A DNA stretch of 64,000 nucleotides from a virus (Duplodnaviria > Caudoviricetes): IMG/VR virus record IMGVR_UViG_3300014969_000017, positions 1 to 64,000 of that record, one strand, 5' to 3'. Each line of letters starts with the position of its first letter. The stretch's first letter is position 1. Positions 13,113 through 49,749 of this stretch are shown piece after piece. Under the pieces are notes generated by a model. It saw only the letters and a list, made by a program, of their open reading frames with translations, made no database searches and was not told where the DNA came from. The position numbers were made by a program, and so were the translations under genes.

Positions 13113-13224
13113 TGATGTCGCCCTTGCTCAAACGGTTCATGACAGTGACCCCCGCGACACGGTGCCTCCGGCACTCAGCGTGCGGTCGCGCGTCCGCTGT
13201 CCCAACGATGTCGAACACCTCGCG

Positions 13225-16006: not shown

Positions 16007-16354
16007 TCAATGCACCCCGGTGGTCCGCCGACGCCGCAGCGAATCCGGCGTGAACACGTAGCCGACCGACACCTGTGCCTGCGGGATCGTCCCGAAGTTC
16101 GACCGCACGTACTGGATCGAGCGAATCGCCAGCGTCCGGCTGCACCGGGCGCACTCCGACGTAGACACGAGCGTGAGGTGATGCAGATGCGTCGAGCCGC
16201 ACGGGCAGTACGCGTCCACGGTCACGTCGAGCCGATCCACGAGCTTCTCGGTCGCCGGGGGTCGCTCCTCGGCCGCGTCCGCCCCCAGCACCTTCGCCAG
16301 AATCAGGAGCAGAGTTTTCACGGTACCGTGATGGGTCGTCGCCGTCGGCATCAA
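16007..16354 (-). CDS. Zinc-ribbon hypothetical protein
   Basis: CPCG...CARC motifs; overlaps the MuF stop. Confidence 0.55.
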   Translation of the reverse strand: MMPTATTHHGTVKTLLLILAKVLGADAAEERPPATEKLVDRLDVTVDAYCPCGSTHLHHLTLVSTSECARCSRTLAIRSIQYVRSNFGTIPQAQVSVGYVFTPDSLRRRRTTGVH

Positions 16355-17838
16355 TCCTCGCTATCACTCTCGTCGCCGGTATCGGCCGTGTCGGCCTCGG
16401 GCGCGGCCTTCGTGCTCGGCTTACTCGGCTTGTCGCTCTCGTGGTCGCCCAGCGTGTCCTCGTCAATTTCGTCCACGTCGATTTCGCTGCCGTCGGAGAG
16501 GAGCGCGATCTGGACGCACCGGCAGGCATCCCCGCCGAGGCACTTCACGTAGGGTGGGCGCAGTTCTTCCTGCCGGTCGCTGCCCAGTTCCATCGACTCG
16601 CCATCGACCTCGGCGCACTCGTCGCACGTGCCCGTGTCCATGACCGCCGTCTGGATGACCGCGTCCACGATGGCCTCGCCCCCGGCCACCGCCTCGGCCT
16701 TGCTGATGAACTTGCCGTTTTCGTCCCGGTAGGCCAGTTCAAACTCCAGCGGGATGCGCGAGCGCCGGAGCGCCTGCATCGCCGTCGAGCGCCCCAGCGC
16801 GAACGCTTCGTTGGTCGCCCGGCTGGCGAACCGCTTCAGTAGCGACGGCGAGCGCCGATCCGTGAACGACTGGGTGAGCGCCTCGCGCCGGTCGGCCCCG
16901 ATCCGTCGTCGCCGGAGCCGCGCCTCGTAGTCCTCGCGCAGACTGGTGAGCGCCCGTGCCCGGTCGGCCAGCACCGCCGCGCAGATGCCGTCCACATCGA
17001 CCGGGATCTCGCGCGTGCCCAGCCGCGCCGGTGCGCCCTGCCGCACCAGTTCCATCAGCACTTCACTCGCGCCGTAGGCGGCGAGGTCGTGCAGCGTGTC
17101 GCGCCAGCGGTCCTCGTCACAGCTAAGGAGCGTGTCGCGGCAGGCGTCGAGCCGCCGGGGAATCTCCGTCAGCGACAGCACCTTGGCCTCGAACTTCATC
17201 GGCCGACGGCTCAGGCTCACGCCTTTGTAGAGCGTGCGCTTCCGTTTGCGCTTCGGGGGCTTCGACGGGATTGCGCCGACCATCGACGGGAACGACACGT
17301 CACTGATGTCAGGCAGGTTGATAATCGCCAAGTCCGTGCGCCCGGCGATCAGGCCGTGCTTCTTCGCGTTGGCTCGGGACTCCTTCGTCATCGACACGGG
17401 CACCCGCGTGACGCCCTTGTCGCGCAGGTTGGCCATGCGGTGACGACCGTTCGTGAACCCGACGCGGCCATCGGCATCGACATTGACTTCGGCCGCGTCC
17501 ATCTGCGGCGAGGTCTTCAGGAAGTCCGCGATGCGCTCCAGTCGCCCGTGAATCGCGCCGGTCCCGGACGGGTCGATGTGGAAGCCGGTGTCCTGCTTCC
17601 ATGCGGCGTCGAACTTCGCCATGTCCACGGGCACGAGCACGTCGCCTGCACGCTTCGCGCGAGCACTGTGCGTGACCTTGATCGACCGGCCCTCGACTTC
17701 GACGTGCTCGCCGCCGCTGTACTGGTTCCCTCGAAACGGATGGCCCTCGGTATCGCCCAGTGCGAACGGCTTCGCCTTGGAGACGATGACAAAGTCGCCC
17801 TCTTGCAACGCAAACCGGTCGGCGTGTACGTCCCTCAC
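16351..17838 (-). CDS. MuF-like head morphogenesis protein with N-terminal tag and ParB-like domain
   Basis: ALGDTEGHPFRGNQYS tag; NGRHRMANLRDKGVTRVPV (ParB-like); C-terminal TAVMDTGTCDECAEVDG...PPYVKCLGGDACRC (MuF Cys motifs). Confidence 0.8.
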   Translation of the reverse strand: MRDVHADRFALQEGDFVIVSKAKPFALGDTEGHPFRGNQYSGGEHVEVEGRSIKVTHSARAKRAGDVLVPVDMAKFDAAWKQDTGFHIDPSGTGAIHGRLERIADFLKTSPQMDAAEVNVDADGRVGFTNGRHRMANLRDKGVTRVPVSMTKESRANAKKHGLIAGRTDLAIINLPDISDVSFPSMVGAIPSKPPKRKRKRTLYKGVSLSRRPMKFEAKVLSLTEIPRRLDACRDTLLSCDEDRWRDTLHDLAAYGASEVLMELVRQGAPARLGTREIPVDVDGICAAVLADRARALTSLREDYEARLRRRRIGADRREALTQSFTDRRSPSLLKRFASRATNEAFALGRSTAMQALRRSRIPLEFELAYRDENGKFISKAEAVAGGEAIVDAVIQTAVMDTGTCDECAEVDGESMELGSDRQEELRPPYVKCLGGDACRCVQIALLSDGSEIDVDEIDEDTLGDHESDKPSKPSTKAAPEADTADTGDESDSED

Positions 17839-18446
17839 GGCTGCACCTGTACGGTCATCCCGTTCGGACCTTTGCTGACGACCTTGTACTTGAGGCCACG
17901 CGGCAGAATGACTTCCTGCTGCCGGGCATACCGGTGGTCGGTGCCGATCTCCTCGTTGACGTTGATGTGACCCAGTCCCTTGGGCGCGAGCACGGTCAGT
18001 GTCGATTGCTTGGCCTTGTCCGCCACGCCGATGTCGTCCTGAATCTTCGCCAGCGCCGCCGGGTCGGCCGTCGTGGAGACGAACCCATCGTCCTGATACA
18101 CGTCGCCCACGTCCAGCGAGGCCACCACGCTGGTGGGCACCGTGCGACTCAGCGTCGTGTCTTTCGGCAGGCGATTCCGCGTCATGTGGGTGTCCATCTC
18201 CAGCACGTCATTGCGATTCGCCCAGCGCGGTCCCTTCCCTGCCCGAAGATGCTCGTTGATGTAGCGAGCGCCGCCCAGCGTGTACTCGCTGACGGCTTTC
18301 TTGACGGCGTACGTTCCCCACCGCCAGCGTTGGCCCTCGGTATCGCTGTCGCCGCCCTCGCCCTCGGTCCACTGGTTGCCGCGAAAGGGATGCCCTTCGA
18401 CATCGCCAAGGCTGAGGAGCGCGAGCTTCTCGCGGTAGGCGGTCAC
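17835..18446 (-). CDS. Tagged VIP2-like ADP-ribosyltransferase
   Basis: YREKL helix + LGDVEGHPFRGNQW tag; YT...YINEHLR, LSR, GFVSTT, QQEVILPRG (R-S-E triad). Confidence 0.85.
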   Translation of the reverse strand: MTAYREKLALLSLGDVEGHPFRGNQWTEGEGGDSDTEGQRWRWGTYAVKKAVSEYTLGGARYINEHLRAGKGPRWANRNDVLEMDTHMTRNRLPKDTTLSRTVPTSVVASLDVGDVYQDDGFVSTTADPAALAKIQDDIGVADKAKQSTLTVLAPKGLGHINVNEEIGTDHRYARQQEVILPRGLKYKVVSKGPNGMTVQVQP

Positions 18447-19714
18447 ATGACCCCCAGTAGCCGCTGGCGATACGCCGACAGCGACTTCGGCTGCTCACCG
18501 GGCATCAGCACATACTCGTCGGGCAGGAGCGCCACCTTCTGCGTGGCGTAGGGGCGCTCGCCGGGCGGCAGGTTCTTGTGCGTACCATCGGCCTCGTAGT
18601 TCTGGCGACCAAAGTTGACCCACGAATTCTGGCCGCGTGTCTCCGTCGTTAGTGCTCGCCGCGCCGGGAACGTCAGCATCTGCGAGTGCGACCGCCACGC
18701 GTTCTCCTCGCCACGCGGCCCGAAGCCATACCCGCCTGCGGCGTGGCCGAAGTAGTCGTGGACGGCGCGGAACTTCTCGTTCAGGGACAAGCCGGTCTTG
18801 TCTTTCGACTTCGCCCCGATCAACGGGTGCGGCTCGCCACCCGTGTAGAAGTACATGTGCTTGTTGTTCTTCACGTCCGCAACCATCTCGGTCGAGGTCT
18901 GGTAGGGCTGACCGTCTTGCGTCCACGGCTCCAGCGTCATGCCGCTGGCAACGATGTGATCCCACTGCTGCTGAATCTCGGTGCTCAGCGCGGCGTAGGC
19001 TTCCTTGACCTTGGGGTTGTCTTGGTCGTCGGCTGGCAGCGCGTCGTACGCGTCCGCGATGTCACGGGCGCGTGGCTGGCTGACCTCGATGTAGGTGCTG
19101 TGATCGACCGGCGGGAGGCCGTGCGCCTCGTTGTAGCTATCCGCTACGCGGCTGGCGGCGGGGTCGGCTCCGGGTCTGGCGTGCGTCGTGGCGGCGGGGG
19201 CGGATACCGATCCTCCTCCTCCTCCGTCAGTTCCCGATCCTTGCGGTTGTCCGTCGGCGTGTCCGCCATCGCCTGCTCCTTCGCTGAATTTGCCGTCATC
19301 GGCACGGGGGTGCTGGCCCTCGTCCCACTCAAGGTGACGTGCATCTATACTATCATAGTTCGCGACCGCCAGTGTCAGGGCCAGCTTGTCCCGGTAACTC
19401 AGGTCCACCGGTGGCTGGTCCGACCCCTCGATGCGGTGCTTCAGCCAGCCGCAGAACGCCTTCGGGTCGTCCTTGTCCGGATTCTTCTCGACGCAGTCCG
19501 CGAAGTCTTCATAGTCCGCGAACGGCATGGTAATCACCTCGCCCACGGGAAGCGCCAGCGACCGCTCCTGCGTGACCGCGAGCATGATGACCTCGCCGTT
19601 GTCGAACTTTGCAATCGCTGTCGTGGCCTGATCGGGGTCCACCAGTTGATCGTTCAACAAGTAGGCGATGGTGGCCCAGCGGCCGTCGATCTTGTCGCGT
19701 TGCAGGCTCGGCAT
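18443..19714 (-). CDS. Tagged polyvalent protein with HDxxGH putative metal-binding domain
   Basis: Start MPSLQRDKIDGR overlaps the upstream stop; LEWDEGQHPR tag; FRAVHDYFGH...GEENAW...ETRGQNSWVN. Confidence 0.7.
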   Translation of the reverse strand: MPSLQRDKIDGRWATIAYLLNDQLVDPDQATTAIAKFDNGEVIMLAVTQERSLALPVGEVITMPFADYEDFADCVEKNPDKDDPKAFCGWLKHRIEGSDQPPVDLSYRDKLALTLAVANYDSIDARHLEWDEGQHPRADDGKFSEGAGDGGHADGQPQGSGTDGGGGGSVSAPAATTHARPGADPAASRVADSYNEAHGLPPVDHSTYIEVSQPRARDIADAYDALPADDQDNPKVKEAYAALSTEIQQQWDHIVASGMTLEPWTQDGQPYQTSTEMVADVKNNKHMYFYTGGEPHPLIGAKSKDKTGLSLNEKFRAVHDYFGHAAGGYGFGPRGEENAWRSHSQMLTFPARRALTTETRGQNSWVNFGRQNYEADGTHKNLPPGERPYATQKVALLPDEYVLMPGEQPKSLSAYRQRLLGVM

Positions 19715-22521
19715 CACTGCGTCTCCGGCGCATCCCAATCGAGCAGGAGCACCTGTTCCCGGTCCGTGACCTCGTCGCGCTCGATGGCCGACAACGCGAC
19801 CCGCTCGATGCCGTGCGTCTTGTCGTACGCGTGCATCTTCGCCAGTGCCCGGCGCGTCGGCATCTTGATGCGGTAGATCGGCACCTTCATCTCCGGGTGC
19901 TCCAGCGCCAGCGCGGCGGCTGCGGCCCAGTGGTGATGCCCGTCGAGCACGCGGTTCCCCTGCGACACCAAGACCGGCTTGAACGGCTTGCCCTTGCTTT
20001 CGAGCTTGTCCAGCTTCTCGGCGGCGCGGCGTGCGGAGATTTCTTTCTGCGAGGGCGCGAGCGTCAGCGGGTTCACCATCTCCCGCGTCACCGTGACACC
20101 GGCATCTCGCAGCGACTGGAGGAACGGCTCGCGATGCTCGGGCGGAATCTGCGGCATGTCCGCACGGGCGATGCCCAGTCCGTTGCCGCCGAAGATGAGA
20201 TGCCCGTTGACGTGCAGATCGGTAAGGTCCGCGTCCAGTCCCTGCTTGAGCGCCTTCTTCAGTAAGGCCCGGACGTGATGCGGATCGATGTTGGTCTTGT
20301 GGCCGTCCAGCAGCGAATGCAGCGCCTCGCCGGGCGAGTGCGAGTCCTCGAACTGACCGCGTGCATCGCGTGGGTGCTCGCCTTCGTCCCATTCCAGTTG
20401 CAGCGCCTTGAGCTTGTCGCGGTAGAGCGAGGTCGGCTTCTCCGGCACAGCGTCCGCAGGATCATCGGGAAAGTCCTCGCCCAGTAAATCGCGCCACAGG
20501 TCGCGGTCGGCACGCGTGCCGTCAGGCTCCTCGTAAAACATCTCGCGACTGCCCGGCCGTGGCGTCGGCGGCGGCGGGTCGGTCGGCGGAGGCGTCGGCG
20601 GGTCGTCGGCAAAGTTGATGGGTGACAATCCCAGTCGCTCGCGATTCGCGTTGCGCTCCTTCTGCTCGGCCAGCACGTCGGCGCGTTCGCGCTTGCGTCG
20701 TTCGCGTTGCGCGACCGTCTCCTTGGCCTTTGCCTTCCGCTCCGCCTTGACGATCCGTGCCGCCGCGTCCTGTCCCTCGTTCTGTTGCCGCATCCCGGCG
20801 ACCTCGCGGACCCGCGTCTCCAGTTCCGTCGCCAGCCGTGCTCGCTCTTGGTAGTCCGGGTGCGTCGTGCGTGCCGCCGGAGCCAACTCCTCCAGACGCG
20901 TGCGCAGCGCCGCAATGCGCGTCTCGCTCGCCGCAATCGCCCGGTCGCGTGCCTCACGTCCAGCCCGGATGTCGGCGGCTGTCTCGGCATCAGCCTTCGC
21001 ACGCTCGCGTGCGGCCGTGCGCTCGGCCTTCTGTCGCACCGCACGATCAATCGCTCGCTCGGGACGCGGAGCCGGTGTCTTCGTGGCCGAGAGGTAACTG
21101 TGCAACCGACTCATCGCCTCTTTGTCATCGAGGCGGATTTGCCCGTACCAGTCACTGCCCAGCAGCACAGCGGACCCGATCTTCTTACCCTCGCTCGTCG
21201 CGTCGGCAATCGCCCACAGTTGCGTGTCATCGCCCTCCGTCTCGGTGGCGATGTCCTCCAGCGAGAGCCGCTCCTCGTGCGTGATCATGCCCCGGCGCTC
21301 GGCGCGGTCGATCAGGCTATCGATGTCAGGTCCGCCATGCTCGTCGCTATCGATCTTGAACCCAAACTTCGCCCACGCGTAGCCGCCCACGTCGATGTTC
21401 GCGTGGACCGTGACCTTGTCCACGCCCATCTTTTCGTACTCGTCAAAGCTCGCACGGAGGAGATCCTTCGCAAGGCCACCGCCCGTGTTCCCCGCTTGGA
21501 AGTAGCTGTGATCCACCACAAGCTCGCCGTTGTAGTCGCGCTTGAACTCGCGGGTGATCTGCGTGCCAGCGGATCCGGCGAACTTGATGCGCACCACTTC
21601 TTCGCCGCTGTAATTGCTGTCGTCCTGCTCGGTGCGCCACTCATCGAACGAGTCGTTGGGTTCAAAGTCCTGCCCAACGCCGTCCTCCCACTCGCTGCGC
21701 ATCTGGTTGATGGACTTCTGCACAGGACCGCCCGTCTGCATCAGCCGCTCGCGCAGGATGGCCTTCTCGTCCTCGGACCACGGAGCCGACGGGTCCAGCC
21801 CCTCCACGAGATCCTCGTACTCAATCTTCTCGGCGGTGTCGCCCGGCTGAAAGGCTTCGCCTTCCCCTAACGGCAGCGTCGGAATCTCGCGCGTATCACC
21901 ATACGGACCCGTGCGCCGGGCCTCCTCGGCCTCGGCCTTCATCGACTCCCAGAGCGTGTCGATCTCGGCCGCGCGATCCCGACGCTCGGCCACCCAGTCG
22001 TTCCGGGCTTCCCGGCGCGACTGCTCGACGTACTCGTCATAGCTCTCGCGGAGTTCCTCCTCGTCGGGACCGCCGCCCTCGGTCATGATCGTGACCGCGA
22101 ACTTCTCCTGATCGGCGTACTGCACCATCGACTCGGCCAAGTCACGCACGGCCGCTTCGGAGTTCAGCCCCAGCACGTTCGACACGACCGCGTCATTGGC
22201 CTCGTCGTCTACCCGGACGATGTTCTTGCCCTTGACGCTTTTCTTGCTGTAGCTGCCAGTGCCCTCACCGTCGCCCTCGGCGGACCCGCCGACCTCGCCC
22301 GGTCGCCCGGCATGCCCGAAGTTCCCGGAACCGGGACCGCCCAGATGCACGGGCGTCGGCTGGTACGGTTCGACCGTGAAGGTGGCCCGACCCCCGTCAT
22401 CGAACACCACTCGCGCCACCACGGCCTTCGGGTGACGCGGCTCGACCGGCTGGCGGTCGGCGTCGAGGAACACGACCACGCCGTGGCGTCCGTCAATCGT
22501 GATCGGTTCCGGTTGAATCAT
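19714..22521 (-). CDS. Tagged polyvalent protein: GNAT-like + ParB/Srx-like domains
   Basis: HLGGPGSGNFGHAGRPGEVGGS; GGGLAKDLL...VHANIDVGGYAWAKFGF; LEWDEGEHPR; LAPSQKEI...VLVSQGNRVLDGHHHWAA. Confidence 0.75.
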   Translation of the reverse strand: MIQPEPITIDGRHGVVVFLDADRQPVEPRHPKAVVARVVFDDGGRATFTVEPYQPTPVHLGGPGSGNFGHAGRPGEVGGSAEGDGEGTGSYSKKSVKGKNIVRVDDEANDAVVSNVLGLNSEAAVRDLAESMVQYADQEKFAVTIMTEGGGPDEEELRESYDEYVEQSRREARNDWVAERRDRAAEIDTLWESMKAEAEEARRTGPYGDTREIPTLPLGEGEAFQPGDTAEKIEYEDLVEGLDPSAPWSEDEKAILRERLMQTGGPVQKSINQMRSEWEDGVGQDFEPNDSFDEWRTEQDDSNYSGEEVVRIKFAGSAGTQITREFKRDYNGELVVDHSYFQAGNTGGGLAKDLLRASFDEYEKMGVDKVTVHANIDVGGYAWAKFGFKIDSDEHGGPDIDSLIDRAERRGMITHEERLSLEDIATETEGDDTQLWAIADATSEGKKIGSAVLLGSDWYGQIRLDDKEAMSRLHSYLSATKTPAPRPERAIDRAVRQKAERTAARERAKADAETAADIRAGREARDRAIAASETRIAALRTRLEELAPAARTTHPDYQERARLATELETRVREVAGMRQQNEGQDAAARIVKAERKAKAKETVAQRERRKRERADVLAEQKERNANRERLGLSPINFADDPPTPPPTDPPPPTPRPGSREMFYEEPDGTRADRDLWRDLLGEDFPDDPADAVPEKPTSLYRDKLKALQLEWDEGEHPRDARGQFEDSHSPGEALHSLLDGHKTNIDPHHVRALLKKALKQGLDADLTDLHVNGHLIFGGNGLGIARADMPQIPPEHREPFLQSLRDAGVTVTREMVNPLTLAPSQKEISARRAAEKLDKLESKGKPFKPVLVSQGNRVLDGHHHWAAAAALALEHPEMKVPIYRIKMPTRRALAKMHAYDKTHGIERVALSAIERDEVTDREQVLLLDWDAPETQ

Positions 22522-24764
22522 GGTGTGTGCTGGGCCTTCACCTTCGGGTACGTCTTGCGCAGTTGCAGCGCGTAGTCCTGCCACGACTTCGCCGGGACGC
22601 CTTCCTTCCACGGGCCACGCGGAGCCTGCTCATGGTACGCCGCGACCTCGGCCAGTGTTTCCTCCTCCGCGCGTTTCCACGCGGGACCAATCGCGTTCGG
22701 GGGTCCATCCCGCATTGCTGTCTCGTACGCCTCCCAGTACAGGCGCGAGTAGGCGGTGAAGCCATCGTCTTTGCGCATCGCGTGGCCGCGCTCGCTCAGG
22801 CCACGGTCGTCCATGACCGTCTTGCCGTCCTCGGCCGTCTTCCACGTCCCGAGGTAGGGGTCGCCCAAGGGAGCCGTCCGCGCCATTGCGGCCGACGCAG
22901 GCCACCGGGCTTCGATCTCCGCCATGCGGCTCTCGCGCGGGTAGCCGTTCCGACCGAACAGGCGGTCCCACTCCGGTGTCGCATCCTGCACGACCTTCCC
23001 GCCATCCCCGAAGACCCGCTGCCCCTGAGACGCCAGCTTGCTGATTTCATCGTGCTCCTTCGCCGCCACGATGCGCACCGTGTCGTGCTGCGCGTGCATG
23101 ATCTCGTGCGACACCAGCCCCTGCGTGAACTCCGGGTTCCGCGCGAGGTTGCGGGAGTTGACCTCGATGCGCCCGGTGCCCGGATCGTAGTGTCCGCCCT
23201 CGTTCAACTGGCGACCAGCCACAGTGAAGCCGCGTGGCTCGATGTCCACTACGTCGATGCGCCCAGCGTCGAACCCTTGCCGCGTGGAGACAGTGTTCGT
23301 GATGATCTGCACCGTCTCCTGCCGCACTACCGGCGCGTGCGCTTCCACCGCCAGTCGGGCGGCGTGCTCCGCCTGCATCGCCTCTTGTCGCGCGTCGAAC
23401 GACGTGTAATACGTCGGGTCTTGGTGGATCTCGTAGTCCCACCCGTGCTCGGCCCGGATCGCTTTCACCACCGCGAGGTGCGAGGCGAGCACGTCGGCAT
23501 ACCGCAGGGTCGCCTCCTTGAGTGCCGCCTGTCGCTTCTCCATCTCGCGCTGCGCGGGGCGTGCTGTCTCGCCTTCGCCATCAGTCCACTGGTTTCCACG
23601 GAAGGGATGTCCCTCCACGTCGCCCAGCAGGATGAGGCGTCGGCCGTCGGCCGACATGGTGATCTTTGGGTTCGCGGGGTCGAACGTCGTGTTGCCCGTG
23701 GCGCTCTTGATCTGCGTCGGCGCGAAGACGACGAAGTGCGTCGTGTCCGGGTTCATCCCCTTCATCGACTGACCGATCCGCCGCTGCGAACCGAACTTGG
23801 TGTCTACCTCGCGGTCGATGACGCCGTCGAACCCGGCTCGCTCCAGCGCCGCCCGGAACACTTCCTTGTTGACCAAGGCACCGGTGTCGCTCTCGATGTA
23901 GCTGGCCTCCTCCGTGTCGTTCCACGCCTTGACCAGTTCGGAGGCCGTGATCATGTCGCGGTCCATGATCTTCTCGGTGAACTTCTCGACCGCCTCGTCG
24001 CCGCCGGAGTGCTGACTGGCTTCGTCGCGCAGTGCCGCCAGAAAATCTGGCAGCGTGCCTTCCTGCCCGACGATGTCACTATCGGAGTCGTTCGGATCGT
24101 CGTACACGTACTCCGAAGTCAGGACGGTTTCCCTGTGCGACGAGGTGCCGTTGGCATCGCCCACGACGAAGGGCTGCTGCATCGACACGTACGCGGGATA
24201 GATCGCGACGGACTTACCAGCCAGCGCCGCACGCGCCTGCTTCAGTGCGTCGTCGTGAGACAGATCCTCGTTCTCGCTTTGTAGGCGATCCACTTCGTGC
24301 TCGATGCGAGCCGTCAGGTCCGGACCTTCCCCGGCGTAGTTTTCCCCAGCGTCTTCCGGCTCGCTGGTGAAGTACACGCCAGCGCCCCAGTCCGACTCGG
24401 GATTCAGTCCCTCGTCTCCGGCCTTCTTGAACTCCTCGATGTCGTGCGTCGTGCCGTGATAGACGACCAGCGGCTGGCCCTCGTCATCTACGACCTTCGA
24501 CTCTTTGAACCACGCCTTGAACCGGGGCGACTCGGTGCGGTCCCGGCCACTTCCGCCACCCTCGCCATCCGTCCACTGATTGCCCCTGAACGGGTGGCCT
24601 TCGACATCGCCCAGCAGGAGCGCGAGCCGCTCGCGGTAGGTCAGCGCCTTCTTGTCGGCGTCGTCCTTCGGCTTCGGTTTCGGGGGGACCGGCTTGATAA
24701 TCCGGAACTCGCCCCATGTGAAGCGATCCGCGTCCGGCGGCACACTGGGCGGCGTGGCAGGCAT
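22518..24764 (-). CDS. Tagged polyvalent protein: ART-PolyVal-like + zincin metallopeptidase
   Basis: Two LGDVEGHPFRGNQW tags; FKAWFKESKVVDDEGQPLVVYHGT...GVYFT...FAPTQIKSATGN; HEIMH. Confidence 0.8.
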   Translation of the reverse strand: MPATPPSVPPDADRFTWGEFRIIKPVPPKPKPKDDADKKALTYRERLALLLGDVEGHPFRGNQWTDGEGGGSGRDRTESPRFKAWFKESKVVDDEGQPLVVYHGTTHDIEEFKKAGDEGLNPESDWGAGVYFTSEPEDAGENYAGEGPDLTARIEHEVDRLQSENEDLSHDDALKQARAALAGKSVAIYPAYVSMQQPFVVGDANGTSSHRETVLTSEYVYDDPNDSDSDIVGQEGTLPDFLAALRDEASQHSGGDEAVEKFTEKIMDRDMITASELVKAWNDTEEASYIESDTGALVNKEVFRAALERAGFDGVIDREVDTKFGSQRRIGQSMKGMNPDTTHFVVFAPTQIKSATGNTTFDPANPKITMSADGRRLILLGDVEGHPFRGNQWTDGEGETARPAQREMEKRQAALKEATLRYADVLASHLAVVKAIRAEHGWDYEIHQDPTYYTSFDARQEAMQAEHAARLAVEAHAPVVRQETVQIITNTVSTRQGFDAGRIDVVDIEPRGFTVAGRQLNEGGHYDPGTGRIEVNSRNLARNPEFTQGLVSHEIMHAQHDTVRIVAAKEHDEISKLASQGQRVFGDGGKVVQDATPEWDRLFGRNGYPRESRMAEIEARWPASAAMARTAPLGDPYLGTWKTAEDGKTVMDDRGLSERGHAMRKDDGFTAYSRLYWEAYETAMRDGPPNAIGPAWKRAEEETLAEVAAYHEQAPRGPWKEGVPAKSWQDYALQLRKTYPKVKAQHTP

Positions 24765-24994
24765 CAGTACAACTTTCTTGGGTAGTCCGGCGTGGGCGAT
24801 ACCCACGTGCCGCCCCAGACATTCAGGATGTGCTGCGCAAGACGCGCATCCTCAGTCGGCGCATAGTGCCCGTTCTCCGGCGGCTGCATCGACGGGGCGT
24901 TCAGCAACTCCGCGAACACCGCGTTCTCCGGCACCGACACGACGCCATCGCTGACCGTGACCGTTTCCCCGGTCGAGAGCTTGAGGGTGATCAT
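24764..24994 (-). CDS. Small untagged protein (candidate immunity/partner)
   Basis: 76 aa, translationally coupled on both sides. Confidence 0.55.
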   Translation of the reverse strand: MITLKLSTGETVTVSDGVVSVPENAVFAELLNAPSMQPPENGHYAPTEDARLAQHILNVWGGTWVSPTPDYPRKLY

Positions 24995-26223
24995 GGCTTA
25001 CTCCGATACTTGCCGTGCATCACGTCGAAGATGAACTTGAAATGCTCCGGCCGACTTTTCGAGAAGCCGATGGGGTCCATGATGTACGCCTCCACGCCCG
25101 TCGAAACCATCTCCGTCGCAATGTCGTCCGGGTAGAGTTTGGCCGAGTACGGGTCCGGGAAGTTGCCACGCAGCGCGTGCTCATGGGCATCGAGGCCACC
25201 GTGAACCGTGTTCAGCGCATAGACCTCTCGCGGTTTCGTCGCCAGCGATTCTCGCAACTCCACTGCCGCCTTCAGCACCGCCGAGTGGTTCATCTCGATG
25301 TGGTGCGCGATCTCGTGATAGACCGTGCGGTCCAGTTCGCGTGCGTTGCCGATATTGATACCACCCAGCGTGGCGTTCGCACGCCCGTCTTTGGCTCGCC
25401 CCAGCCGCAAGGTCGCCGGGATCGAGAACGTCCCATCGGGATTCGTCACCAGCGGCGTCTTGTCTCCAAAGATTTCGCGAAACTTTTCGATCTGGTCGCC
25501 GGGGTATTTGTGTGGGACGAAGGCACCGGACCCGTCGTACTGCCGAAAGGTCGCCAGCGCCCGATTCGCGCCAGCCTCCACCGCCCCGTGCAACTCCTGC
25601 GTGGACGTGAACGTCAAAGCCGACCGCTCCTCGTGCGGCACCTTCAGTAACTCTTTGGCTTGGGCGTTCGCCTCCGCACGCTGCTTCTGCGCCTCGTCGT
25701 ACGCGGCGTGGAACGTGGCCGAGAGCGCCTCCATCTTCTTGTAGGAGTCGAGCTTCTTCGCCGCCGCGCCGTCGGCTTTCAGGGGCCGCTTGCGCTCGGT
25801 GATGTCCTTGCGCCACGCGTCAGACGCGGCCTTGATGTCGTTGCGCATGACATTCAGGGCGTCCTCGGTGTCTTCGCCCTTCTTGACCAGCGCGACGAAC
25901 CGGTGATGCAGCGCCTCGATGGGATCGCTGTCGCCCTCAGCCGATCCGCCGACTTCGCCCGGTCGCCCCGCGTGACCGAAGTTGCCGCTGCCTGCTCCGC
26001 CCAGCAGGTACGCCAGCTTCTCGCGATAGGTCAGGTGATGCGGGTCAGGTGGCGGCTCCGGCTCCGGCGCGGGTGACTCGGCTACGGTGAAGAATGCAGT
26101 GCCGCCATCATCGAACACGACCTTCGCCATCGTCGCCTTCGCCGCTGGGACCGGGTGCCAGTCCGCATCGAGATAGACGACGCTACCGGATCGACCGTCG
26201 ATGGTGATGGACTCGGGCGTCAT
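24991..26223 (-). CDS. Tagged zincin-like metallopeptidase
   Basis: LGGAGSGNFGHAGRPGEVGGS tag; HEIAHHIE...YSAKLY...TEMVSTGVE. Confidence 0.75.
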   Translation of the reverse strand: MTPESITIDGRSGSVVYLDADWHPVPAAKATMAKVVFDDGGTAFFTVAESPAPEPEPPPDPHHLTYREKLAYLLGGAGSGNFGHAGRPGEVGGSAEGDSDPIEALHHRFVALVKKGEDTEDALNVMRNDIKAASDAWRKDITERKRPLKADGAAAKKLDSYKKMEALSATFHAAYDEAQKQRAEANAQAKELLKVPHEERSALTFTSTQELHGAVEAGANRALATFRQYDGSGAFVPHKYPGDQIEKFREIFGDKTPLVTNPDGTFSIPATLRLGRAKDGRANATLGGINIGNARELDRTVYHEIAHHIEMNHSAVLKAAVELRESLATKPREVYALNTVHGGLDAHEHALRGNFPDPYSAKLYPDDIATEMVSTGVEAYIMDPIGFSKSRPEHFKFIFDVMHGKYRSKP

Positions 26224-33217: not shown

Positions 33218-33218
33218 G

Positions 33219-33683: not shown

Positions 33684-33701
33684 GGCGCGATCATACGGCC
33701 G

Positions 33702-34049: not shown

Positions 34050-34055
34050 GCGTCC

Positions 34056-36479: not shown

Positions 36480-36482
36480 GAC

Positions 36483-40769: not shown

Positions 40770-40812
40770 CGGTCCCGCTTCCGTTTCGACTGTGCCGCCG
40801 CCGCCGCGACGG

Positions 40813-41277
40813 TTACTTCGCGAACGGGAACGACTTCTTGACTTGCGCCGGACCAGCCACTTCGTCGTCAGGTGGTTCGGCGGCTTCTTCGGCTGGCGTC
40901 TCCGTTGCCTCGTGCGCGGCACCTTCTTCGCTGGTGTCCGTCGTCACGTCTGGCTCGACGCCGACCGTCTGACCGTCGTCCGTCTCGTACTCGAACTTCA
41001 GCTTCTTCTTCCCGTGAACGGTCGAGACTTTGACCTTGCGCATGTCGAGCGCGAACGTGGACGCGGGGCACGTGCGTGCCTTGTCCAATCGTCGCGCGAG
41101 TTCACGGCGATCTCCGCCGCTCACGCCGTGCGCATCGCGCCACGGCCCCATGCGTTCTGCGGCTTGCGGATCCATTGGTGGCGAGCACCGGTCTTCGCAC
41201 AGGATGACGGACATGCCGCCGTCGAGCGTCAACCAGAGTGCGCCATCCTCGCGAGTACCAGCGACACGCATACTCAT
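40813..41277 (-). CDS. Hypothetical protein sharing its N-terminal domain with 41284-42360
   Basis: [35 protein letters not shown] vs MRIVGTRADGTQWVTLDGGMAVLLRADRCSPPVDP. Confidence 0.65.
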
Positions 41278-41283
41278 CTCCTT

Positions 41284-42360
41284 CTATTTCTTCACGCCAG
41301 CGGGAGGGATGCCGAGCTTGCGCGTCCACTCCGTGGAGAGGTGGTAAATCTGCGACATCGGCATATCGACCACCGTGACTTTCATCGCAGTGTCGTTGTT
41401 CAGGTTCCCGTCTTCGGCGTCACGCCCGACCGCAGCGGCCCACGTGTGGTGTCCGTCGATCACGTAGCCATCGCGCGATACCCAGATCCGGTTCTTCTCC
41501 GACTTCGGATCGAAGCCAGAGTTGAGCATCATCCCCGCGACCTTCGTGCCTTCCATCTCGGCTTGGCTGGCCTTCAGCTTCCGCGAGAGCATGGTGTCGG
41601 GGTGCGTTTTGACGCCGGACGCTTGGAGATGCTTGAGGAACTGTTGCGCCGCGTTCACTTCACCGTTCGCATCGCGCGGGAGCTTGTCCGCCTCGCTGCC
41701 GGGGATCGGATTCTTCGACTTGAACTGCGGCATCTCGATGCGCGGAATGCCGTGCGGGAACTTCTCCGTCTTGAGCGTTTCCTGACAGAAGATGCTGGCC
41801 CCCTTCACCGTGACCGTGCAGGGATCCCAGTTCTTCGCGTCCTTCCCCGCCGCCTGCGCCGCCAGTGCTTTCTCGCCCAGCAGCCGGAGCACGGTGTGAA
41901 CTTGCCGCGTGTCCTTCAGTTCGACGTTCTCGCCCTTCAGGATGAGATCGACGCCTTCCTCGGCCGTCTCGACCTGATGCACCGGCTTGCTGCGCTGCTG
42001 ACGAATCGCCTCCTGCATCGACCGCTGGACTTCGTTCAACGACGGATGGTAATCGTCACCATCCTTCTCGGACCCGCCGCCAGTGCCATCGCTGTACTGA
42101 TTGCCGCGAAACGGGTGGCCCTCCACGTCTCCGAGGTGGAACGTGCGCAGCGACACCGTGCGTGCGCGTTCGAGTCGGCGCACGAGCACGCGCTGCTCGT
42201 CTCCGTTCCGCACGACCGGCGCGAACGTCCACGGCCCCAGTGATTCAAGGAGGTGCGGATCCACCGGCGGCGAACAGCGGTCGGCGCGAAGCAGCACGGC
42301 CATCCCGCCGTCGAGCGTGACCCACTGGGTACCGTCTGCGCGTGTGCCTACGATTCGCAT
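41284..42360 (-). CDS. Tagged ParB/Srx-like protein
   Basis: FHLGDVEGHPFRGNQYS tag; LKASQAEM...IWVSRDGYVIDGHHTWAA. Confidence 0.75.
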   Translation of the reverse strand: MRIVGTRADGTQWVTLDGGMAVLLRADRCSPPVDPHLLESLGPWTFAPVVRNGDEQRVLVRRLERARTVSLRTFHLGDVEGHPFRGNQYSDGTGGGSEKDGDDYHPSLNEVQRSMQEAIRQQRSKPVHQVETAEEGVDLILKGENVELKDTRQVHTVLRLLGEKALAAQAAGKDAKNWDPCTVTVKGASIFCQETLKTEKFPHGIPRIEMPQFKSKNPIPGSEADKLPRDANGEVNAAQQFLKHLQASGVKTHPDTMLSRKLKASQAEMEGTKVAGMMLNSGFDPKSEKNRIWVSRDGYVIDGHHTWAAAVGRDAEDGNLNNDTAMKVTVVDMPMSQIYHLSTEWTRKLGIPPAGVKK

Positions 42361-42366
42361 CGTCGT

Positions 42367-44271
42367 TTACCGATGGCGGCGCGTGGACGTGATCGCCGCC
42401 TGCACCGCGCGTGCGCTCATGCGCTCAGCGGCTGGCGTGTGCGGGTCAGCGGCGATAGCCCCGTACGCGGAATGGAGGTCGTCAAGGTCTTTCGGCTTCA
42501 GCTTGTGGAACGTGTCGATGGTCAGCTTCTTCCGGTTGGCCTTCGGCCCGAGGATGCGCGTGATCGTCGCATCGCCTTCCGCCGCCGTCAGGAACTGGCC
42601 GCGCTCGTTGCGCGGATGCTGGCCTTCGTCCCAATCGAGCGCGAACGCCATCTCGTCGTCCGTCATGTGCATCGGCGGCATCCGCGCGTGCGGCGGCGGT
42701 GCGGCCCCACGTGGTGCGCCGGGATGCTTCGGCGTCGGCTCGCCGCCCTGTTGGTCGTCTGGGTTGCCGCCCTCGGCCTGTTGCTGCTGGTCCGGTTCCT
42801 CGCCCGGCCCCGGTCGATTCGGGTTCGTCGCATCACCCGCGTTCGTGCCATCGCCCTGCTGCGGCACAGCCGACGCGTCACCCGGTTGCGCGGCCTTCTC
42901 GGACTTCGCCTCGCGCGAGCGCGTGGGCGCGAGCGGCGGCAACCCGAGCATCTTGCGCAGCACCGCTTCGTCGTCGTCCTGCGGCGTGATGAGCGTGCCC
43001 TGCAACTGGGCGAGCACGCTGACCAGCGCGGTGAGATCGAGTTGTTCGAGGTCGAGGCAGACCGGGTCCGGATACTTCCGGCGCGACATATCGAAGTTGA
43101 AGTCGCACAGCGGCTTGATCACGCTGTTCTTCAGATCGCCGTTGATGCCGTTCGCAATCCCGTCGAGCGACGAGATGAACATATCGGTGATGCGCGAGCC
43201 GTAGCCGGAGCCGACGTGCGTGCCCACTTGGTTGTTCTGCCCGGAGGCCAGAAACATCGCGAGGACGTTCCGCGCCATCTGCGAATCGTTATGCTCGATC
43301 CATGAGATGCCGAACTGCCCGGCCGTGCCCTGTCCGCTGTTCCCGCCCTCGATACGAAACGCGGTGTGCTCCGGCGTCACCATGTACGACTTCTCGTTCG
43401 CACGCACCGACCGCAAAATCTCCCGGATCAACCCGAGGTCGCCGGTCGAAAGCGTGTTGCCCTCCTCCAGCGCGATGATGGGAATGCCGACGCCCCAGCG
43501 GTCGAGGCCGACGCCCATGATGCGGTACGCCTCGTCCTTGAAGAACCAGTTGCGATAGATATTCCGCAGCAGCGACATCCCGTGGTAGTTGTCGCCCTCG
43601 CGGTCGAGCACGAACACCGCGCAGTACTCGGCGGGGATGGTCAGGTACTGGTAGCTGACGGAGCCACCATAGATCGCCGCCCGGTTATTGCCCCGTGAGT
43701 CGCGGCTCGCGTAGGGCACGGGCGCGTACTGCACGATGTGTTCGAGCTTGCCCTCCCGATTGACGTGCCATTCGCGCAGCGTCTTCGGCAGGCGTGGGGC
43801 CAGTCGCTTGAAGCGATAGAAGCCCTGCTCGTCCACCTTCCAGATTTTCTCCAGCACCGAGACGCCGAACTCCAACTGCATCAGGATGTGGCGCAGCGTG
43901 AAGTCCCACGAGTCGTCCATCGAGTCGTCCTCGAACAACGCCCCGTTGCAGAACTCTGCGATCTGCTTGTCTACCGGATCGGAACTGGCCGCGTTGACTT
44001 GCCACGTCGCCCCGCGCAGCGGGAGCTTGATGACTTGCAGCATGGCGCGGACGTTGGCGTCCGTGCGGCGCATCTTGTCGTACTGCGCAACGGCCTTCTG
44101 CCAGTCATCGAAGTCGGGGTTGTAATCCTCCCGACGAATGGTGCCACCGTAGTTCTCGGTGCCGGAGACGCCGTGCTCCTGCGCGGCCACGCCACGAATC
44201 GGAGCCGACGGCACGCCCTGTTGACTGAGGTCGCGGCGGAAGATCGGTGGAATGAGGTCCGTCAGTTTCAT
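42367..44271 (-). CDS. Portal protein (DUF935 / Mu gp29-like) with tagged C-terminal extension
   Basis: YDKMRRTDANV...GVSVLEKIW...YHGMSLLRNIYRNW...GVGIP...IKPLCDFNF; C-terminal LDWDEGQHPRNERGQF. Confidence 0.9.
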   Translation of the reverse strand: MKLTDLIPPIFRRDLSQQGVPSAPIRGVAAQEHGVSGTENYGGTIRREDYNPDFDDWQKAVAQYDKMRRTDANVRAMLQVIKLPLRGATWQVNAASSDPVDKQIAEFCNGALFEDDSMDDSWDFTLRHILMQLEFGVSVLEKIWKVDEQGFYRFKRLAPRLPKTLREWHVNREGKLEHIVQYAPVPYASRDSRGNNRAAIYGGSVSYQYLTIPAEYCAVFVLDREGDNYHGMSLLRNIYRNWFFKDEAYRIMGVGLDRWGVGIPIIALEEGNTLSTGDLGLIREILRSVRANEKSYMVTPEHTAFRIEGGNSGQGTAGQFGISWIEHNDSQMARNVLAMFLASGQNNQVGTHVGSGYGSRITDMFISSLDGIANGINGDLKNSVIKPLCDFNFDMSRRKYPDPVCLDLEQLDLTALVSVLAQLQGTLITPQDDDEAVLRKMLGLPPLAPTRSREAKSEKAAQPGDASAVPQQGDGTNAGDATNPNRPGPGEEPDQQQQAEGGNPDDQQGGEPTPKHPGAPRGAAPPPHARMPPMHMTDDEMAFALDWDEGQHPRNERGQFLTAAEGDATITRILGPKANRKKLTIDTFHKLKPKDLDDLHSAYGAIAADPHTPAAERMSARAVQAAITSTRRHR

Positions 44272-49591: not shown

Positions 49592-49749
49592 CGTCGTCGT
49601 CTCCACCGCGTTGGCGGCGGGGGTCCATCCCCCGCCCCCGGCTGTGCCGGGCGGTCGCTGTGCCGCCCGTTCCGTTGGCTGGTCCGCTCAGGTCCAGCCG
49701 CCTCGCTCCCGGTGGCTTGCCGCCACCCGCGCCGTCGTCGTTCATAGAG

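Follow-up and report, generated by a model that had tools for sequence, protein, structure and literature searches.

The internal proteins and Alt of phage T4 carry a targeting leader that is removed by the prohead protease. This capsid-targeting sequence has about 10 residues, is found at the N-terminus only and is specific to T4-like phages, and polymorphic toxins have pre-toxin junction motifs such as VENN and DPxGL. Polyvalent proteins are multi-domain effector chains, with ART-PolyVal, ParB-, metallopeptidase- and nuclease-like domains, that are encoded in head and packaging modules and occur as portal and MuF fusions, and proteolytic release of their domains has been proposed (Iyer, Burroughs, Anand, de Souza and Aravind, 2017; PMC5512222). 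The available main text of that paper makes no mention of conserved junction peptides, nor does the available MuF-toxin text of Jamet et al., 2017 (PMC5576092) mention a motif, linker, cleavage or junction.

Here we describe three peptide motifs, tags A, B and C, in the head-gene block of an uncultured phage; the whole 64-kb stretch of DNA that was analysed is referred to as the window. The tags and their cassettes extend the polyvalent-protein theme, and the junction peptides themselves are unannotated, as no Pfam family, solved structure or paper in the literature searched covers them. Compared with the polyvalent proteins in the available text of Iyer et al., 2017 (PMC5512222), each junction here has one of three motifs of 13-20 residues, free-standing single-domain genes are tagged too, and Pfam MPTase-PolyVal was not detected in the window. 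A comparison with the T4 capsid-targeting leader, made in a preliminary description of this locus, is reasonable in that both would be short N-terminal signals in front of head-packed, injected cargo and linked to prohead-protease cleavage; however, the tags have no sequence likeness to the T4 leader, are longer, also internal, repeated, and common to phages with unrelated portals and proteases. With polymorphic and MuF toxins they share a short conserved motif that borders a variable C-terminal effector, downstream exchange that breaks at the motif, and a MuF carrier. In contrast to those toxins, the tag motifs are different, recur within a chain and are also found on portals and proteases, and the MuF match in the window is sub-threshold.

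Seventeen tags in the head-gene block

Six-frame regular-expression (regex) and profile scans of the window found nine copies of tag A (regex G[DE]..GH.F.GN[QK][WYHF]), four of tag B and four of tag C. All 17 are encoded by the minus strand and distributed over nine genes between a Mu-type portal (42367-44271) and a Mu-type protease (13848-15716), and the six-frame regex scan found none in the rest of the 64 kb, in keeping with the earlier claim that they are confined to this block. Profiles made solely from copies in other contigs (253 instances of A, 136 of B and 135 of C) recovered exactly the regex copies, which upholds the numbers and approximate positions first reported: nine matches to A (E <= 8.3e-11; next best E 3.8), four to B (E <= 1.4e-13; next best E 0.11) and four to C (E <= 1.5e-9; next best, marginal, E 0.064, AYRDENGKF at 16675-16728). 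A degenerate DNA pattern of the tag A core matched eight times in the window against 0.00 expected from 100 shuffles; the ninth copy, which it missed, encodes Arg with AGG. The tagged genes encode the portal and proteins of 358, 2224, 428, 762, 965, 423, 203 and 495 aa. The number of genes and the presence of the portal among them agree with the preliminary description, but the MuF protein that it also named falls below the family threshold (E 0.043, 15 bits against 29.6). The portal side of the block holds the following features:

42367..44271, minus: portal protein, 634 aa (Pfam Portal_Mu, E 2.2e-35; phrog_113 portal, E 2.5e-51); Pro/Gln/Gly-rich C-terminal extension, tag C (aa 546-560), terminal domain of 74 aa
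42592..42639, minus: tag C copy 1 (LDWDEGQHPRNERGQF), within the portal C-terminal extension (regex; profile E 7.4e-10)
41284..42360, minus: 358-aa protein (phrog_2859, E 4.4e-17 over aa 236-347); N-terminal leader, tag A (aa 77-89), ParB-like C-terminal domain (DGHHTW)
42094..42132, minus: tag A copy 1 (GDVEGHPFRGNQY), 358-aa protein (regex; profile E 4.9e-13)
26220..32894, minus: polyvalent protein, 2224 aa (sequence; segment matches); split by its seven tags (B, A, A, A, C, A, B) into eight segments, each 148-392 aa long, with matches to Pterin_4a (E 1.3e-16) and ADPrib_exo_Tox (28.4 bits; cut-off 23.4) and weak ones to NERD/NOV_C, HD and Zn_peptidase_2 (HEVSH motif)
32013..32075 (core 32028-32063), minus: tag B copy 1 (LGGPGSGNFGHAGRPGEVGGS), 2224-aa protein (regex; profile E 1.4e-13)
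31215..31253, minus: tag A copy 2 (GDLPGHEFHGNQW), 2224-aa protein, preceded by the helix LTYRDRLALLL (regex and profile)
30360..30398, minus: tag A copy 3 (GDVDGHPFRGNQW), 2224-aa protein (regex and profile)
29877..29915, minus: tag A copy 4 (GDVPGHEFHGNQW), 2224-aa protein (regex and profile)
29274..29321, minus: tag C copy 2 (LDWDEGSHPRDESGRF), 2224-aa protein (regex and profile)
28587..28625, minus: tag A copy 5 (GDVEGHPFRGNQY), 2224-aa protein, before an ADP-ribosyltransferase-like segment (regex and profile)
27360..27422 (core 27375-27410), minus: tag B copy 2, 2224-aa protein, before the C-terminal HExxH metallopeptidase-like segment (regex and profile)

The protease and capsid side holds the following:

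24991..26277, minus: 428-aa ORF, probable start at the leader-domain Met at 26223; leader domain, pre-tag helix, tag B, HEIAH metallopeptidase-like domain
26080..26223, minus: leader domain of the 428-aa gene, about 50 aa, four beta strands (jackhmmer; AlphaFold2 pLDDT 76-89, residues 1-48), with further copies at 22363-22521 and 19559-19690 (jackhmmer)
25942..26004 (core 25957-25992), minus: tag B copy 3 (LGGAGSGNFGHAGRPGEVGGS), 428-aa ORF (regex; profile E 3.7e-16)
22518..24806, minus: 762-aa protein (Pfam ART-PolyVal, E 7.9e-19); leader, tag A, ART-PolyVal domain, tag A, HEIMH metallopeptidase-like domain, the last homologous with the C-terminus of the 2224-aa protein
24573..24611, minus: tag A copy 6, 762-aa protein, preceded by LTYRERLALLL (regex and profile)
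23586..23624, minus: tag A copy 7, 762-aa protein (regex); homology with the relative P0005 breaks exactly here
19714..22611, minus: 965-aa protein (phrog_2859, E 3.2e-30 over aa 765-932); leader domain, tag B, 634-aa middle part, tag C, ParB-like domain
22282..22344 (core 22297-22332), minus: tag B copy 4, 965-aa protein (regex and profile)
20350..20397, minus: tag C copy 3 (LEWDEGEHPRDARGQF), 965-aa protein, preceded by SLYRDKLKAL (regex and profile)
18443..19714, minus: 423-aa protein (phrog_3170 domain); leader domain, tag C, phrog_3170 domain; in the longer form, a 649-aa ORF listed from 20392, the first 226 codons overlap the 965-aa gene out of frame
19286..19333, minus: tag C copy 4 (LEWDEGQHPRADDGKF), 423-aa protein (regex; profile E 1.4e-11)
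17835..18446, minus: 203-aa protein (Pfam ADPrib_exo_Tox, E 1.3e-9, 38.1 bits; cut-off 23.4); pre-tag helix, tag A (aa 14-26), ADP-ribosyltransferase
18369..18407, minus: tag A copy 8, 203-aa protein (regex and profile)
16351..17838, minus: 495-aa protein (Pfam PFIN, E 0.0012; Phage_Mu_F, E 0.043, sub-threshold; no PHROG match); short leader, tag A (aa 28-40), weak PFIN/ParB-like part, Cys-rich MuF-like C-terminal part
17719..17757, minus: tag A copy 9 (GDTEGHPFRGNQY), 495-aa protein (regex and profile)
16675..16728, minus: possible degenerate 18th tag (AYRDENGKF...), before the MuF-like part (tag C profile E 0.064, marginal)
13848..15716, minus: prohead protease with scaffold-like C-terminal part, 622 aa (Mu-like_Pro, E 4.6e-30; phrog_328 head maturation protease)
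12186..13127, minus: major capsid protein, 313 aa (phrog_1005, E 4.7e-81; PF03864 in homologues)

The AYRDENGKF peptide is similar to reduced 'REYVRDEKGQF' forms that follow leader domains elsewhere.

Where two copies of a tag share a residue, the codons differ in 58% (A), 58% (B) and 49% (C) of pairs, and these differences equal or exceed random draws from the codon usage of the block (0.23-0.73 per residue). Synonymous sites between copies are thus saturated, and selection is on the tag peptide, as had been argued from the synonymous differences. Separation of the chains during translation, by 2A-like skipping, is extremely improbable. The viral 2A consensus is GDVExNPGP, and the sole likeness to it is local, in the LLGDVEGHP of tag A (here LxLLGDVEGHP); the 'VE' positions vary across contigs (V41, F35, Y32 and P86, A32, E27 of 209), NPGP is absent from the tags, and tags B and C bear no resemblance. 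Moreover, to our knowledge, 2A occurs solely on eukaryotic ribosomes.

Cassette architecture and tag flavours

Each cassette is built of the tag, a Gly/Asp/Glu-rich spacer and a globular domain, in that order, and may have a leader, either a small beta domain or a YRxxLxxLL helix, in front of the tag; the residues downstream of the tag are Gly-rich in copies across contigs. Cassettes occur as stand-alone genes, as chains, of which the 2224-aa protein has the most tags, seven, or fused behind proteins that are part of the prohead anyway. Such carriers are the portal, at its C-terminus, MuF-like proteins and, outside this phage, the prohead protease. In other contigs the median spacing from one tag to the next is 234 aa (187 gaps; quartiles 169-320), and the architectures are highly mosaic. 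Almost all enzyme modules of the head-gene block begin at one of the 17 tags, and the gene-by-gene order bears out the earlier claim that the tags precede separate domains of polyvalent and ADP-ribosyltransferase-type proteins. That these are usually recognisable enzymes holds in part: three of the 17 post-tag segments reach a curated Pfam cut-off, all of them ADP-ribosyltransferases, and about nine more have a weak match or a catalytic motif only.

Fewer than 60 residues follow the last tag in just 6/355 tagged ORFs whose end lies within the locus, and in 146/370 ORFs no more than 40 residues separate the first Met from the first tag; with this polarity, the tag resembles a removable leader and not a tail. 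Judged from sequence comparison, the tag belongs to the downstream domain and moves with it in cassette swaps: P0005 has 79% identity with the 762-aa protein up to residue 395, past which the window protein continues with tag A and a metallopeptidase-like domain, and P0005 with tag B and a different domain. In AlphaFold2 models, tag B after a confident leader domain has pLDDT <50 and tag A after a confident XkdF domain 32-44, so that the tags are predicted to be disordered linear motifs.

Cassette exchange that breaks exactly at the tag, and the mosaic architectures, would also suit conserved linker ends or recombination joints for cassette shuffling that have no specific biochemical role of their own. 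We believe this to be very unlikely. Six columns are invariant over 139 diverse tag copies (partly due to how the copies were collected), and the motif is kept in the 2517 protein clusters that the tag A profile matches, a sign that selection acts directly on the peptide. Furthermore, since synonymous sites are shared between DNA copies no more than by chance, tag DNA is a poor substrate for homologous recombination.

The preliminary description saw in the three tags an addressing code, and this is not supported. One orthologous junction has tag A in the 762-aa protein and tag B in P0005, A/B hybrid forms exist, B or C is also present in only 7/156 top tag A proteins, and all 13 other whole records have a single flavour each; the window phage mixes three. 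Given this swap, the hybrids and the one-flavour genomes, the flavours look like interchangeable variants of one signal, and are best read as one class of short disordered linear motif at the N-terminal edge of each cassette in the head-internal polyvalent proteins that tailed phages encode.

A possible role of the tags in the prohead

Among 110 tagged ORFs, picked by length out of 354 non-redundant ones, Pfam identified portals of four families (6), Phage_Mu_F (3) and XkdF or DUF2213 proteases (4). Thirteen of 33 distinct XkdF-type protease ORFs have a tag, after the protease domain in 11 and before it in two, and one frame of a Neisseria lactamica contig runs from portal through tag C, a variable part and a DUF2213-like protease part to an acidic tail. 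In all ten fetched genomes in which an XkdF or DUF2213 protease was located, at least one tagged gene is no more than 10 kb away. Phage_Mu_F, a portal-associated family, is the commonest neighbour (10/10 widely connected neighbourhood proteins sent to Pfam; 29/49 records), the MuF and XkdF enrichments being uncalibrated counts from tag-bearing phages alone.

Our best reading, which we hold tentatively, is that the tags are where cargo cassettes inside the head are recognised and released, as with the T4 leader and its cleavage site but extended to chains of several domains. A carrier or leader would take the chain into the prohead, where the tag would be the recognition element for processing the cargo inside the assembling head. 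The chain would be cut at or beside the tags, for which the Mu-type prohead protease (13848-15716) is the likeliest enzyme in this phage, and single enzymes (ADP-ribosyltransferases and ParB-, nuclease-, HD- and metallopeptidase-like proteins) would be freed and might exit with the DNA. The data establish that the tags exist, are conserved, have a polarity and predicted disorder, behave as parts of cassettes and lie in head modules; that the chains are cut, which protease does so, and that the enzymes are packaged and injected is our inference, and the injection and anti-defence roles that were suggested earlier for the tagged domains are read from family names. Tags are also found after portals, MuF domains and prohead proteases, all of which enter the prohead regardless; a release or processing site suits this placement at least as well as an address does, and portal-tethered proteins would have no exit unless cut. 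The role of the tags could therefore equally be release, and the interpretation in the preliminary description is partly supported overall, its observation being confirmed.

The main rival, possible but doubtful, is a pure address label that binds to some part of the prohead, be it scaffold, capsid interior, portal or MuF, and so brings the cassette into the head with no cleavage at the tag, the extra tags of a chain adding avidity. Every separately encoded cargo gene of the block has at least one tag, often close to the first Met across contigs, the conserved core is long, as in a typical binding epitope, the commonest neighbour is portal-associated, and one flavour per genome suggests a cognate receptor. 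However, portals, MuF domains and proteases are tagged although they need no address, flavour differs despite homologous portals and capsids (A in G006 and G013, C in G033 and G042), and no family is common to all tag-bearing records. Encapsulin cargo-loading peptides are similarly short and conserved, and the tags could likewise direct cargo into an HK97-fold shell; but those peptides are mostly C-terminal tails, a position that the tags almost never occupy, and binding of tags to capsid protein is only putative.

Several observations also stand against recognition and release. Across 49 tag-bearing IMG/VR records, Mu-like_Pro was found in 1, MPTase-PolyVal in 1, XkdF in 16, Peptidase_S78 in 4, DUF2213 in 6 and ClpP in 0. 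None of these protease families was found in 24 records, 7 of which belong to the 21 with a completeness rating of 90% or more. Portal and capsid families vary as well, and no protease, MPTase, portal or capsid family co-occurs consistently with the tags in these records as a reader, or cutter, of them. The conserved core of 13-20 residues is far longer than known prohead-protease sites, which have 3-4 residues. Many single-domain proteins are tagged after only 10-40 residues, for which an address label is equally easy, and the profile scan found no tag in the window's protease/scaffold protein, a kind of protein that usually cuts itself.

Cutting at the tags by embedded HExxH (MPTase-like) zincin domains is a further, quite unlikely, explanation. 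The block has three such domains (HEVSH, HEIAH and HEIMH), each the last cassette of its protein, and the available text of Iyer et al., 2017 (PMC5512222) proposes autoproteolytic release by domains of this kind in general terms. Yet an HExxH domain is missing from six of the nine tagged genes in this phage, homologues of the window's peptidase domains are found in only 2/14 whole records (G000 and G010), and Pfam MPTase-PolyVal in a single tag-bearing record, as given above.

Tags beyond this phage

Each tag DNA pattern matched from about 90 to more than 116 stretches of IMG/VR, and a reversed control pattern matched none. Tag-bearing phages are spread over many phyla, and tag C is also present in contigs binned with archaea. 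In cellular genomes (596 billion bases) the exact tag A pattern gave 38 single-match stretches, against our own chance estimate of the order of 17; in the far smaller virus collection it gave more than 116.

A Lactococcus conjugative-plasmid protein has a peptide like tag A at its start (one marginal match, E 3), so that a role outside capsids is possible; together with the cultured MuF-ART fusion of Microbacterium phage Rasovi, which has no tag, it argues against recognition and release in the head. Such a role, after delivery or general, might be the binding of nucleic acid or a universal host factor, or an unfolding or threading handle for the portal-tail channel. It would suit a disordered motif rich in His, Arg, Asn, Gln and aromatics, the breadth of phyla and archaea-binned contigs, and a search in which a conserved phage partner was not found. 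Nevertheless, we consider it unlikely, as the tags are strongly tied to head modules, their cellular matches are few beside those in viruses, and the plasmid case is one marginal match. The tag peptides occur in thousands of phage proteins, and may serve generally as a signal by which the protein cargo of phage heads is loaded or released.

Tagged genes and their surroundings in the window

The preliminary description listed nine copies of tag A, four of tag B and four of tag C, three short conserved peptides that stand in front of domains, in nine genes. These counts are confirmed by a six-frame regex scan of the 64-kb window and by profiles made solely from the copies in other contigs, which recover the same nine, four and four with a wide gap to the next match. 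The 17 tags are confined to 17.7-42.6 kb of the window and are all encoded by the minus strand. Searching with a degenerate nucleotide version of the tag A core gave 8 matches where 0 were expected (100 shuffles). The accompanying claim that selection acts on the peptide, the copies differing at synonymous sites, is borne out: 49-58% of same-residue codon pairs between copies differ in codon, which equals random draws from the codon usage of the block, so the copies are old and it is the peptide itself that has been kept. A marginal tag-C-like peptide, AYRDENGKF (16675-16728, minus strand; profile E 0.064), stands before the MuF-like end of the 495-aa protein and may be a degenerate 18th tag.

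The window is the first 64 kb of a 72.8-kb record of an uncultured virus, rated about 60% complete. Its G+C content is 63-69%, and the minus strand carries the genes of interest.

Gene order along transcription, in descending window coordinates
66352-67887 of the record, outside the window: large terminase, first in order
42367-44271, minus strand: Mu-type portal (Portal_Mu, E 2.2e-35)
Directly after the portal: tagged gene of 358 aa
36483-40922, minus strand: collagen-repeat protein, 1479 aa (Pfam Collagen, E 3.7e-55; many tail-fibre PHROGs)
34056-36479, minus strand: fibronectin-type-III protein, 807 aa
Between the fibronectin-type-III gene and the tagged block: three small genes
Tagged block: proteins of 2224, 428, 762, 965, 423, 203 and 495 aa
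13848-15716: Mu-type protease with a scaffold-like tail (Mu-like_Pro, E 4.6e-30)
After the protease: major capsid protein, neck, major tail and tape-measure genes

The tagged block lies between Portal_Mu and Mu-like_Pro and adjoins the major capsid protein gene, the head and packaging context of polyvalent proteins; two small ORFs within it (24764-24997 and 16007-16354) had no family match. The untagged collagen and fibronectin-type-III genes lie within the head module, with the portal-proximal tagged gene on one side and the polyvalent block on the other; their products may be fibres or decoration of the head, or tail fibres out of place. About 22 kb separate terminase and portal, which is unusual for a head module, and a PAPS-reductase-like gene (phrog_424, E 4.8e-36) was found at 48770-49687 of the window, minus strand. 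A mechanically listed ORF of 649 aa (18443-20392) overlaps the 965-aa gene (19714-22611) out of frame over 226 Arg/Ala-rich codons; its translation most probably begins at the ATG at 19714, which overlaps the stop codon upstream.

Domains and leaders on either side of the tags

The 2224-aa protein carries seven tags and eight segments of 148-392 aa, which match Pterin_4a and ADPrib_exo_Tox and, weakly, NERD, HD and Zn-peptidase families, and the 762-aa protein joins ART-PolyVal (E 7.9e-19) to an HExxH domain. Each of these chains combines at least two unrelated effector-type domains, as polyvalent proteins do; full membership of that family would also entail packaging in the virion and delivery to the host. 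Among the post-tag segments, the stretches of chain behind a tag, three are ADP-ribosyltransferases by the curated Pfam cut-off. Fainter evidence suggests three HExxH metallopeptidase-like segments, three ParB-like ones (recognised solely via phrog_2859 and a DGHH motif), one NERD-like nuclease and one HD domain. The remaining segments had no Pfam match at E <= 0.5, and one of them matches phrog_3170, a PHROG family of unknown function. The hub domains of polyvalent proteins are ART-PolyVal, MPTase-PolyVal, DdrB-like ParB and MuF. Of these, MPTase-PolyVal (PF18818) had no match in the window at E <= 0.01, where just HExxH motifs and a weak Zn_peptidase_2 match were seen. In the portal, a low-complexity C-terminal extension is followed by tag C and a 74-residue end domain.

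MuF had been named among the tagged genes. The 495-aa protein does hold a MuF-like match at its C-terminal end (aa 325-403 of the post-tag segment), but this sole match is sub-threshold (E 0.043); the other eight tagged genes had no MuF match in Pfam, and a local jackhmmer search from the C-terminal part of the 495-aa protein gave no link to MuF proteins. The layout of MuF polymorphic toxins, with MuF at the N-terminus and a toxin at the C-terminus, was not found in the tagged genes; such toxins also have a cognate immunity gene downstream. Overall, the locus looks like a well-stocked arsenal of phage-type polyvalent proteins, typical of a kind already known.

Many tags are preceded by one of two leaders, a small beta domain or a short helix. 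The first, an N-terminal domain of about 50 residues with the pattern MxPEPITIDGxxGxVVYLD...FDDG, opens three genes of the window and was found at more than 10 further loci; behind it there is invariably a tag, of whichever flavour (tag type), or a reduced form such as REYVRDEKGQF.

Copies of the leader domain
26080-26223, minus strand, window
22363-22521, minus strand, window
19559-19690, minus strand, window
Tag-bearing loci of other contigs: L298, L210, L214, L228, L209, L282, L193, L175

The AlphaFold2 model of this domain is confident; it had no match in BFVD at E <= 0.001, and a wide PDB fold search gave small beta-barrel-like entries (best Z 3.7) and no clear fold match. The second leader, a helix of the form [ST]YR[ED][KR]LxxL, stands before six of the 17 tags, with all three flavours represented. 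The 423-aa gene ends in SAYRQRLLGVM (18446-18478), the pre-tag helix without a tag, and the 203-aa gene begins at the same point (18408-18446) with TAYREKLALLSLGD and tag A; this border looks like a scar of fission or of insertion at a junction. A metagenomic protein of 1214 aa (P0009) carries, besides two copies of tag A, a fourth junction motif, GTTEGAIKGWETRR, three times after the same YRxRLxxLL helix; there are probably more than three kinds of junction peptide.

Spread of the tags beyond this phage

The exact tag A pattern was found in at least 116 stretches of IMG/VR, the tag B pattern in 89 and the tag C pattern in at least 104, and the tag A pattern read backwards, as a control, in none. 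Matches to [GA]W.TRR in the loci were wrong-frame chance matches only, and wrong-frame matches to the tag B core were excluded by requiring an upstream G.GSG. A tag A profile built from 139 diverse copies and searched against 1.84 billion proteins matched 2517 cluster representatives at E <= 0.001 (509 of them at E <= 1e-10), with up to nine copies per protein. Its consensus is hydrophobic-x-K-G-D-x-x-G-H-P-F-R-G-N-Q-[YW]-T-x-G, then glycines. No Pfam family covers the tags, and the tag A profile had zero matches at E <= 10 among the sequences of solved structures.

The patterns are rarer in cellular genomes than in IMG/VR. Tag A gave 38 single-match stretches in 596 billion bases, part of which may be chance, and tag C gave 80, including contigs binned with archaea and Neisseria contigs in which it lies in portal-type open frames. 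A contig with tag C from an 'E. coli' bin was dropped, having no match in complete E. coli genomes.

Portal-like ORFs with an acidic stretch, tag C (AEWDESKHPRAENGQFG) and a variable domain, from Neisseria lactamica NS19 and a Neisseria sp.
L464, 3441-6314, plus strand
L465, 5984-7999, minus strand
L417, 5137-5778, minus strand

In N. lactamica the portal-like frame with tag C continues into a DUF2213-like protease part. A 51-aa tag A region had no tblastn match at E <= 1 among 50,697 phage records. A 60-aa tag C region matched nine records at E <= 10, the best being a portal-family protein of a Helicobacter prophage (5e-3), with the portal of Xanthomonas phage PhiXhv-5 at 0.09. A cultured MuF-ART fusion had no tag. 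On these sequence searches, the tags are barely present in cultured phages. A plasmid search gave four marginal records for tag A and none for tag C. The Lactococcus lactis conjugative plasmid NZ_CP087603.1 (L483, 3320-3808, plus strand) encodes a hypothetical protein of 162 aa with a tag A-like start, MGAPEGHPFFGNQYTNGG, followed by an apparent membrane helix and a Cys-rich end, outside any capsid context.

Placement of the tags and their possible role

Successive tags are spaced by a median of 234 residues, and fewer than 60 residues follow the last tag in just 6 of 355 complete ORF ends. Encapsulin cargo-loading peptides are terminal, mostly C-terminal, and in this the tags differ from them. 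The capsid-targeting sequence of the T4 type lies at the extreme N-terminus of the cargo, where the prohead protease removes it in head maturation; in 146 of 370 ORFs no more than 40 residues separate the first Met from the first tag, yet many tags are internal, including all seven of the 2224-aa protein. The tags were also considered as 2A ribosome-skipping peptides, whose core is D(V/I)ExNPGP, and this was rejected since NPGP is absent and the VE positions vary over 209 diverse copies. The relative P0005 shares 79% identity with the 762-aa protein up to the residue before the second tag. Past this residue, P0005 continues with tag B and a different domain, the window with tag A followed by a metallopeptidase-like one. 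AlphaFold2 predicted the leader domain and an XkdF protease domain with confidence, and the tags behind them at pLDDT below 50.

The tags form one block per genome, adjoining portal, MuF and protease genes. A set of 110 tagged ORFs, chosen by length, includes portals of four Pfam families (six ORFs), MuF (three) and XkdF or DUF2213 proteases (four), together with ART, zeta toxin, PI3/PI4-type kinase, RelA/SpoT, NUDIX, PBECR1 and helicase families as effectors; 13 of 33 XkdF-type protease ORFs are tagged, usually behind the protease domain. Given that a tag precedes a domain and travels with it, and that tags stand at every junction of multi-domain chains and between prohead-resident carriers and their passengers, we tentatively favour the reading that they are the recognition-and-release signal of head-internal cargo, short of calling it probable. 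The tag would be where such cargo is recognised and cut loose, an arrangement that would generalise the leader-plus-cleavage of T4. Iyer et al., 2017 (PMC5512222) proposed proteolytic release for polyvalent proteins, with which this reading agrees.

The main rival is that the tag is a pure address label, which we regard as rather unlikely. A label accounts for N-terminal tags on free-standing cargo and for the use of one flavour per genome, but it does not account for tags behind portals and proteases. A simple cleavage site has three facts against it: the conserved core is long, no protease is common to the tag-bearing records, and a plasmid protein has a tag-like start. These leave room for other roles. 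No family among those scanned was common to all 49 whole tag-bearing IMG/VR records.

Families in the 49 tag-bearing records (descriptive only, from tag-bearing records alone)
Phage_Mu_F (E <= 0.01): 29 of 49
XkdF (Peptidase_S78_2): 16 of 49
DUF2213: 6 of 49
Peptidase_S78: 4 of 49
Mu-like_Pro: 1 of 49
MPTase-PolyVal: 1 of 49
ClpP: 0 of 49

Tagged genes have Phage_Mu_F next to or within them more often than any other family (IMG/VR loci L001-L306 and the 49 records), and it was present in all 10 widely connected neighbourhood proteins submitted to Pfam. XkdF-type proteases were found in 8 records each of the 17 with tag A and the 17 with tag C, and in none of the 15 with tag B; homologues of the metallopeptidase-like domains of the window occur in 2 of 14 whole records. 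A complex prediction that paired a 41-residue tag A region with the capsid protein and residues 1-190 of the protease gave no answer (score 0.00, mark 0.32) and bears neither way. The Mu portal is trimmed at its C-terminus, which is not counted as evidence here.

Phages with the portal and capsid families of the window use tag A or tag C. A single flavour per record was found in 13 of 13 other whole records, and tag B or C in only 7 of 156 top tag A proteins; mixing all three is unusual, being seen in this phage and its close relatives. A/B hybrids exist, for example KGGPGSG...GHPFxGNQY. Since the flavours look interchangeable, the three-tag addressing code first proposed is not supported. The boldest version of recognition and release, to our minds a long shot, makes the tags a portable signal for docking and release that is close to universal in the heads of tailed phages. 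Whatever domain stood behind a tag would enter the prohead and be freed there by cleavage, through a feature conserved despite unrelated portal, capsid and protease families, in viruses of numerous bacterial phyla and perhaps of archaea. The three flavours of this phage would then be separate channels, for example for copy number, release order or cleavage time of enzyme groups.

In the literature searched, neither the junction peptides nor their polarity and broad distribution appear to have been described. Searches with the motif strings returned unrelated papers only, and those on capsid targeting, Mu portal cleavage and polyvalent-protein proteomics brought up no account of these peptides. 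Term searches found no junction motif in the main text of Iyer et al., 2017 (PMC5512222), whose supplements may hold alignments that include these motifs, or in Jamet et al., 2017 (PMC5576092).

Whatever the mechanism, a motif of 13-20 residues kept across phages with unrelated head proteins needs explaining, the more so as neither Pfam nor the solved structures searched contain it. The enzymes that phages bring along in their heads serve to disarm the host as infection begins, and, to our knowledge, the choice, loading and release of this cargo are known for only a few model phages. If the tags are a loading or release signal, they would provide a sequence rule for finding head cargo in uncultured phages, with tag A by itself already matching over 2500 protein clusters. 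In that case they would also delimit the domains of very large proteins whose function is unknown, and with their help chosen proteins could be loaded into phage particles.
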